Assembly (NCBI GenBank): GCA_050186175.1
Contig: JBFWYS010000030.1
Coordinates: 1 to 15,005, forward strand
Direction of reading: 5' to 3'
Source: Pseudobdellovibrionaceae bacterium
Lineage (GTDB): Bacteria > Bdellovibrionota > Bdellovibrionia > Bdellovibrionales > Bdellovibrionaceae
DNA length: 15,005 nucleotides
This document shows positions 13,453 to 13,940 of the stretch, piece after piece; position 1 is the stretch's first letter; the number at the start of each line of letters is the position of its first letter. The translations under genes were made by a program, and so were the position numbers. The notes beneath the pieces are model-generated. The model did no database searches and was not told where the DNA came from. It saw nothing but the letters and a program-made list of their open reading frames with translations.

Positions 13453-13665
13453 ATGGGCTTCATGACAGAAGAAGAAATGCGAAAACGATTCTATGAGGCC
13501 CTCGAACAAGAAGACCTTGGCCAACTAAGGTTCCCCTTCATTTTAGATCGATCAGAAAATGATGGCTCTATCTTCCCCTATTTAATGTCTGATGTCGAAA
13601 CTGACCCAAAAACCTTTCGTCAAAAAGATTTCCTTACCCATAAGATCAACCAAATTAAGGACTAA
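13453..13665 (+). CDS. small acidic hypothetical protein (70 aa), translationally coupled (TAATG) to the HU reading frame
   Basis: ATG start. The TAA stop at 13663..13665 overlaps the ATG at 13665..13667. No recognisable family. Confidence 0.45.
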   Translation: MGFMTEEEMRKRFYEALEQEDLGQLRFPFILDRSENDGSIFPYLMSDVETDPKTFRQKDFLTHKINQIKD

Positions 13666-13940
13666 TGAAGACCATTACCAAAAAATAAATCGTTCACGAA
13701 ATCACCCGAAGAAGAGGAATGGATCCCAAAGATGTCCAAAGAGTTGTCCAAGATTTTTTGGATTCTGTCACAGAAAATCTATTAGAAGGAAACCGTTTTG
13801 AGTTTAGAGCTTTTGGATTATTTGAAGTCGTAGAGAGAAAGGCGAAAACAGGAAGAAATCCAAAATCCCCCCAAACCCCCATTCACATACCAGAAAGAAA
13901 GGCTATAAAATTTTCTCCCGGAAGAAAAATGAAACTGTAA
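13665..13940 (+). pseudogene. hup: HU/IHF-family DNA-binding protein (chlamydial-type HU) with an in-frame TAA at codon 8 (13686..13688); Met-19 at 13719 could re-initiate an N-terminally truncated product
   Basis: The frame reads MKTITKK*IVHEITRRRGMDPKDVQRVVQDFLDSVTENLLEGNRFEFRAFGLFEVVERKAKTGRNPKSPQTPIHIPERKAIKFSPGRKMKL. Everything after the stop aligns with HU helix 1-2, the beta-arm (GRNPKS...PIHIP) and the C-terminus. The stop sits where a Lys or Glu is expected in helix 1 (AAA or GAA to TAA is a single base change). Confidence 0.75.

Follow-up and report, generated by a model that had tools for sequence, protein, structure and literature searches.

HU gene and its upstream partner

The window analysed here is a stretch of 15,005 nt from a metagenome-assembled genome (MAG). 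Towards its end lies a gene for a chlamydial-type HU protein, directly behind a small open reading frame (ORF) termed orf70 (Table 1). The HU frame opens with seven codons encoding MKTITKK and is then closed by a TAA triplet, after which the same frame continues with IVHEITRRRG and an internal methionine, Met-19. Residues 1-7 and 9-18, which flank the TAA, agree with the orthologue consensus MKTITKKQIVHEIARRRG, and this match on both sides of the stop identifies an interrupted gene and excludes a chance ORF. An uninterrupted HU ORF of 90-100 aa including helix 1 is absent here, the longest ORF beginning at Met-19. When the frame was read through the stop, it matched the Pfam family PF00216 (Bac_DNA_binding) with 88.5 bits (E 3.5e-25; curated cut-off 22.4). 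The 73-aa ORF alone obtained 74.4 bits and covered profile positions 17-86 of 90, so that helix 1 is not included. The sequence-only reading of this locus had described an HU frame broken at codon 8, a good HU sequence beyond the break and an open 73-aa frame from Met-19 without helix 1, all of which agrees with the sequence, the ORF list and the Pfam positions. GRNPK and PIHIP of the window HU fall in invariant or near-invariant columns of the family, and its C-terminus is 4-6 residues shorter than that of the 95-98-aa orthologues.

The TAATG coupling to the 70-aa ORF that had been proposed was likewise found, as the stop codon of orf70 (13663-13665) overlaps the HU start codon (13665-13667). 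In addition, the last codons of orf70 contain an AAGGA (13657-13661) that resembles a Shine-Dalgarno sequence and belongs to the HU start.

Table 1. Coordinates of the features discussed in the text; positions are those of the window unless another locus is named.
Feature	Position	Strand	Remarks
orf70, intact small ORF, 70 aa	13453..13665	+	NCBI records: 67 aa from ATG 13462
HU gene, probable pseudogene, accessory plasmid-type subfamily	13665..13940	+	former frame of 91 codons, stop TAA 13938-13940
Premature TAA, codon 8	13686..13688	+	T at 13686 is the mutated base
Residual 73-aa ORF from Met-19	13719..13940	+	helix 2, beta-arm, GRNPK, PIHIP and KFSPGRK kept; without helix 1
Ankyrin-repeat pseudogene	11716..12876	-	in-frame TAG 12502-12504, ancestral GAG (Glu)
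97-aa ORF, convergent, intact	14076..14369	-	control gene for selection test; no Pfam match
506-aa ORF (family unassigned), 91-aa ORF, ParA/CbiA ATPase	L099 11325-13771	.	after iteron-like repeats
orf70 homologues	L009 7812-8000; L093 9789-9989; L095 9798-10001	.	upstream of accessory HU
L112 HU locus	L112 6069-6355	.	lesion at the same nucleotide as T 13686 of the window

The premature stop and its ancestral codon

The region 13600-13760 including the TAA was identical to the window in seven independent metagenome assemblies from at least four projects (L001-L007; SRR27751815, SRR27751816, ERZ1066130, ERZ1066139, SRR14610249, SRR14610250 and ERR3440686), on whose contigs the 73-aa product was called. 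The TAA was also present in two NCBI MAG contigs (L099 and L100), JBFWSX010000042.1 (GCA_050248095.1) and JBFXDT010000056.1 (GCA_050180875.1), which are both labelled 'Parachlamydiales bacterium' and differ from the window by one base each, far from the HU gene. In the NCBI MAG records an 83-aa HU is called from the ATC at 13689 (10228-10479 in L099 and L100, corresponding to 13689-13940 of the window). We read this call, starting just past the TAA, as an annotation artefact which hides the probable pseudogene, and the public 83-aa annotation would be better marked as a pseudogene.

Codon 8 is CAA (Gln) in the intact orthologues of plasmid pSn of Simkania negevensis Z and of the metagenomic loci L093, L095 and L117, where codons 6-9 read AAG AAA CAA ATC (L095 and L117), AAA AGG CAA ATC (pSn) or AGA AAG CAA ATC (L093). 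The lesion is therefore a change of CAA to TAA, caused by a C-to-T transition at position 13686. A single base change had been predicted correctly, while AAA or GAA as the ancestral codon does not fit the orthologues.

The TAA also occurs in a further relative, L008 (SRR17161165), which has ~96% identity to the window across 760 nt. As the stop is common to the window and to this ~4%-diverged sequence, the nonsense mutation predates their split and the whole path between the two follows the mutation. In L008, an 11-bp deletion at ~13744-13754 shifts the frame of the Met-19 ORF, and the 3' end has an 8-bp indel. A very recent inactivation had been one of the readings offered; the TAA is older than the ~4% split, and L008 has since gained the frameshifting deletion.

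An accessory HU paired with orf70

The top annotated match of the window HU was the HU of pSn (WP_013935080.1, SNE_RS00500; NC_015710.1 101433-101726), with 77.8% identity over 90 residues and likewise with a small ORF upstream. On pSn, a conjugative plasmid of 132 kb, the HU gene is flanked by the F-type tra operon on one side and by the dnaB/parA region on the other, and belongs to the leading region of the type IV secretion system (T4SS; tra) cluster. The pSn HU is intact and has 97 aa, whereas the window HU carries the TAA at codon 8 and the replacements A14T and D49A, and has lost the last 4-6 residues.

One genome per species was scanned, which yielded 183 relatives, and the best 80 loci were examined. 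These 80 loci were only 54-63% identical to the window HU. In 79 of them, complete Simkaniaceae chromosomes among them, the protein was of a core type with the signature MATITKKKLIxxISxxxGxHPN[DE]VR...GDRLEFRDFG. The accessory type, MKTITKKQIVHEIARRRGMDPKDVQR...EGNRFEFRDFG, was found in the window, in pSn and in the metagenomic proteins P0003-P0024. The window reads MKTITKK*IV..DPKDVQR..GNRFEFRAFG and thus lacks the core signature; it is 69-77% identical to the accessory proteins P0002-P0021 and at most 63% identical to core HUs. Core chlamydial HU, which is often annotated as 'integration host factor subunit beta', has PF00216 and the length class in common with the window HU and shares with it the TITKK, EFRDFG, GRNPK and VKFxPGKK motifs. 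The two types differ in MATITKKKLI..HPN[DE]VR and GDRLEF of the core HU as against MKTITKKQIV..DPKDVQR and GNRFEF of the window type.

Synteny separated the two groups as well. The gene tyrS was located directly upstream of the core HU, on the same strand, at 63 of the 80 loci across the phylum (HU at ~6001-6270 in most of L010-L089), while no tyrS was found upstream of the accessory HU in the window, L099, pSn, L093 or L095. Conversely, homologues of orf70 (62-70 aa) abut or overlap the HU start in pSn, L093, L095, L112 and L117, that is in every accessory locus examined, and none was detected within 6 kb of the HU at the 80 genome loci. The pSn homologue directly upstream of HU was found with an E value of 3e-14 and is 39-44% identical. 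Judged from sequence and gene order, chlamydiae carry two separable HU subfamilies, a core one that is linked to tyrS and an accessory one that is located on T4SS plasmids or islands and is always paired with the small ORF. The window gene, for which inactivation of a core gene had been suggested, is by sequence and synteny an accessory, pSn-like gene distinct from the tyrS-linked hup.

Neither the MAG of the window nor pSn was among the best 80 loci of the genome scan. Since all 80 are at most 63% identical to the window HU, species-representative genomes rarely contain the accessory type, which may be due to plasmids being lost in binning. Both types coexist in the complete Neptunochlamydia chromosome OZ247587, which harbors a core HU (L024) and an accessory-like HU (L054). 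A protein search for core HU returned 3100 core-type HUs. From the 79 of 80 chlamydial genome loci with a core-type gene, we infer that a core HU is encoded elsewhere in this organism.

The orf70 family comprises 30 protein clusters, with the motifs QEDLxQLRFPF...DFLTHKINQIKD. Pfam searches with orf70, the 97-aa ORF and a 128-aa ORF gave no match. An AlphaFold2 model of orf70 from 27 sequences obtained a mean predicted local distance difference test score (pLDDT) of 63.8 and a predicted template modelling score (pTM) of 0.28, with two short helices and the rest at low confidence.

Large conjugative plasmids carry homologues of HU, IHF or H-NS, and IHF is a relaxosome cofactor in F-like transfer. 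Among the plasmids in PLSDB, 1476 were found to encode an HU relative, 790 of which are conjugative. Like these plasmid nucleoid proteins, the window HU would lie on a T4SS-type plasmid backbone near transfer and partition genes, but it is probably inactivated. The orf70-HU module could have a bearing on how plasmids are transferred or maintained.

Probable decay of the HU gene and a broken ankyrin gene nearby

Substitutions between the window and L008 were compared for the HU gene and the adjacent 97-aa gene. For HU, 5 non-synonymous and 2 synonymous substitutions were obtained, which gives a ratio of non-synonymous to synonymous rates (dN/dS) of 0.68, or 0.85 after the deletion. For the 97-aa gene the counts were 5.2 non-synonymous and 9.8 synonymous (dN/dS 0.11); this gene is under purifying selection. 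Furthermore, both replacements in the window HU, A14T and D49A, affect near-invariant columns, the latter within FRDFG.

A second gene of the window is broken as well. Two ankyrin pieces, 12502-12876 and 11716-12459, belong to one frame that is parted by an in-frame TAG, and together they align end to end with a single 398-aa ankyrin gene of pSn. At the position of this TAG, the orthologue in L112, which is intact and has 386 aa, reads GAG, and strain L002 (ERZ1066130) carries an extra 1-nt deletion at window position 12781 in the ankyrin gene.

Among metagenomic accessory HUs, P0026, P0027 and P0028 are truncated after apparent frameshifts (…EIVRREKKNRQKP, …EIVRQSSKNLHYY…). Unless they are assembly errors, these truncations hint that the accessory HU paralogue may have been lost repeatedly.

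A second lesion at codon 8

In a second accessory lineage, L112-L114 and L116 (five assemblies), the C of the codon-8 CAA is deleted, which creates an A9 run and a frameshift. The orf70 of this group is 91% identical to that of the window and its ankyrin gene is intact; for HU, gene callers give a 77-aa ORF from Met-19. Codon 8 is one of five HU codons in which a single transition yields a stop, and its A tract becomes the longest homopolymer of the gene after loss of the C. Both properties make the shared lesion site less coincidental.

In endosymbionts, genes that are frameshifted within a poly(A) tract are rescued through transcriptional slippage, and an A9 run could be repaired in this way. 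The A9 run of the L112 group resembles these cases. The window does not, as its A6-T-A3 results from a substitution that makes a stop and that slippage is unable to repair.

When the window was compared with L112 in 30-nt bins, orf70 and the 5' half of HU gave 25-28 identities of 30 per bin (83-93% in the 5' third), and the 3' half (within 13719-13937) gave 17-19 of 30 (57-63%). For the 3' half, the values were 20-23 of 30 with pSn and 21-23 of 30 with L093. This pattern suggests that the window HU may be a mosaic formed by recombination inside the gene.

Interpretation and alternative explanations

Taken together, these results make it probable that the HU gene of the window is a fixed and not very recent nonsense pseudogene of a dispensable, accessory plasmid-type HU paralogue, carried by a plasmid-like element that is losing other genes as well. 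The small ORF and HU would form a two-gene module that is typical of large chlamydial plasmids or islands with a T4SS, for example pSn, and the C-to-T change at codon 8 would have killed the HU member of this module. Ribosomes arriving from orf70 would start at the ATG at 13665, produce the heptapeptide MKTITKK and terminate, so that HU function would be lost; any re-initiated 73-aa product without helix 1 would be non-functional or at most retain residual function. The loss would be tolerated because the copy is an accessory paralogue and not the chromosomal tyrS-linked HU. The TAA appears to be fixed in the population and is older than the ~4% lineage split, and the gene would now be drifting, as suggested by the substitutions at conserved positions, the short C-terminus and the frameshifting deletion in the sister lineage. 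The host would be an uncultured, intracellular relative of chlamydiae, in which the decay of a dispensable plasmid HU beside a second pseudogene is a routine case. The premature TAA should thus not be taken as the loss of a core nucleoid protein, and what remains of interest is the conservation of the orf70-HU module and the recurrence of lesions at codon 8.

Several observations weigh against this interpretation. The core HU of this MAG was not located, as the three NCBI-sourced proteins looked up (P0126, P0075 and P0147) belong to other assemblies, although it was their loci that brought the tyrS-hup gene order to light. Selection on HU had been proposed to be relaxed, and with a dN/dS of 0.68 against 0.11 in the neighbor it looks relaxed, but this contrast, although in the expected direction, is low-powered and not significant (seven substitutions, Fisher p = 0.17). 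The window HU deviates from conserved columns at four positions, within the family range of 0-7, and is therefore no outlier; the deviation count was dropped as a measure of decay because it does not discriminate. The beta-arm region is still open in both lineages that carry the TAA. Finally, the lesion of the L112 group affects the same nucleotide, yet the rest of that gene has a dN/dS of 0.07 relative to the intact L117. This leaves two readings, a very recent frameshift or a gene that is still in use, and 5'-truncated or slippage-rescued forms of HU could stay useful.

Among the alternatives, re-initiation at Met-19, 30 nt past the TAA, could yield a functional 73-aa HU with beta-arms kept under selection. 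Mechanistically, ribosomes could re-initiate behind a mini-ORF of 7 codons; the window retains an intact Met-19 ORF with a clear match to the HU profile, a purine-rich stretch precedes its ATG and orf70 is intact in every case. The independent lesion in L112-L114 and L116 also leaves a Met-19 ORF, with conserved residues complete and low dN/dS. However, a very recent frameshift or slippage on the A9 run accounts for this low value equally well, and the 11-bp deletion in L008 breaks the Met-19 frame. In the window lineage, dN/dS past the TAA is 0.68-0.85, the near-invariant FRDFG has a replacement at D49 and the C-terminal tail is missing. The sole Shine-Dalgarno-like stretch, GAGGA, abuts the Met-19 ATG (~0-1 nt spacing) and is too close, and the product would miss helix 1, which belongs to the HU dimer core. 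Relatives starting at the equivalent of Met-19, which according to the sequence-only reading would have made the upstream piece non-coding, were not found, all intact relatives beginning at MKTITKK. A functional 73-aa HU is therefore considered unlikely.

It was also considered that codon 8 acts as an expression switch, with different mutations in its A tract that repeatedly turn accessory plasmid HUs of chlamydiae either into a short HU lacking helix 1, produced when ribosomes re-initiate at Met-19, or into a form that depends on slippage and is expressed at a low level, HU acting together with orf70. We regard such a switch as quite improbable.

The window HU might instead be the only HU of the organism, in which case a core nucleoid gene would have been lost. 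MAGs are incomplete, and the three candidate look-ups did not locate a second HU for this MAG. The sequence, the presence of orf70 and not tyrS upstream and the pSn-like neighborhood nevertheless place the gene in the accessory subfamily, and the core-type gene is widespread in the phylum, as it occupies 79 of the best 80 chlamydial genome loci. This explanation thus appears very unlikely.

The TAA could also be bypassed, whether through codon reassignment, readthrough or a suppressor tRNA, and full-length HU still be made. A bypassed stop had been raised from the sequence, and the frame is preserved perfectly on either side of it. The two in-frame stops of the window, the TAA in HU and the TAG in the ankyrin gene, first suggested that TAA and TAG are read as Gln. 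This candidate was rejected, since the window ORFs end in all three stops (TAA/TAG/TGA, 10/6/3) at positions that the orthologue alignments reach, and the in-frame stops replace different residues, Gln in HU and Glu (GAG) in the ankyrin gene. In addition, the sister lineage L008 has a frameshift, and neither a tRNA gene nor an Rfam element was found in the window. Bypass therefore received no support and is extremely unlikely. The odds of a sequencing or assembly error, which had also been considered and for which the A-rich tract around the stop (AAAAAATAAA) is an error-prone context on some platforms, are negligible, as the change is a substitution, not a homopolymer length error, and seven metagenome assemblies, two NCBI MAGs and the ~4%-diverged relative all have the same base.

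A plasmid-like neighborhood

Six other ORFs of the window have homologues on pSn (1892-2620, 2873-3913, 3968-5038, 5572-6726 and the two ankyrin pieces), and at least six window ORFs besides HU and orf70 have counterparts near the pSn HU. Iteron-like TGYGACA repeats, including two exact 39-nt copies, are present at 14550-14695. Beyond the end of the window, the MAG contig continues with the 506-aa ORF, the 91-aa ORF, a ParA/CbiA ATPase and three ORFs homologous to pSn, among them the thioredoxin-like gene that belongs to the tra cluster. The repeats together with the 506-aa ORF, the 91-aa ORF and ParA/CbiA look like a putative plasmid replication and partition module. At L093, TraE, TraK and TrbI are encoded 7.5 kb downstream of HU, as in pSn, and the L095 locus carries ParA genes. 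Unlike pSn, the 19.5-kb contig shows no tra genes. In S. negevensis and in others this T4SS is plasmid-borne, and in some Simkaniaceae it is integrated in the chromosome (PMC7846284); neither HU nor nucleoid proteins are mentioned in this survey of chlamydial plasmids. A literature search for pSn, Simkania and conjugative gave no match. From the gene content we conclude that the window is part of a pSn-like plasmid or of a plasmid-derived island.

Between the convergent HU and 97-aa genes, an inverted repeat with 12-nt arms and a 9-nt loop is found at 13969..14001, which may be a candidate terminator or operator, and a GTACGATCGTAC-like palindrome is located at 14010-14027. A name for the 97-aa ORF as a ribbon-helix-helix protein was dropped for lack of a Pfam match.

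Further upstream in the window, a 176-aa ORF (8809-9339, minus strand) aligns with the MFS_1 profile in its N-terminal third only (positions 36-140 of 347); its flanks are non-coding, and it is probably a truncated transporter remnant. It adjoins an intact 402-aa major facilitator superfamily (MFS) gene at 6719-7927. The guanine-cytosine content falls to 0.28-0.30 at ~5500-7500, compared with 0.37-0.41 in the remaining window, and this dip covers the MFS gene and a 384-aa ORF that has a pSn homologue.

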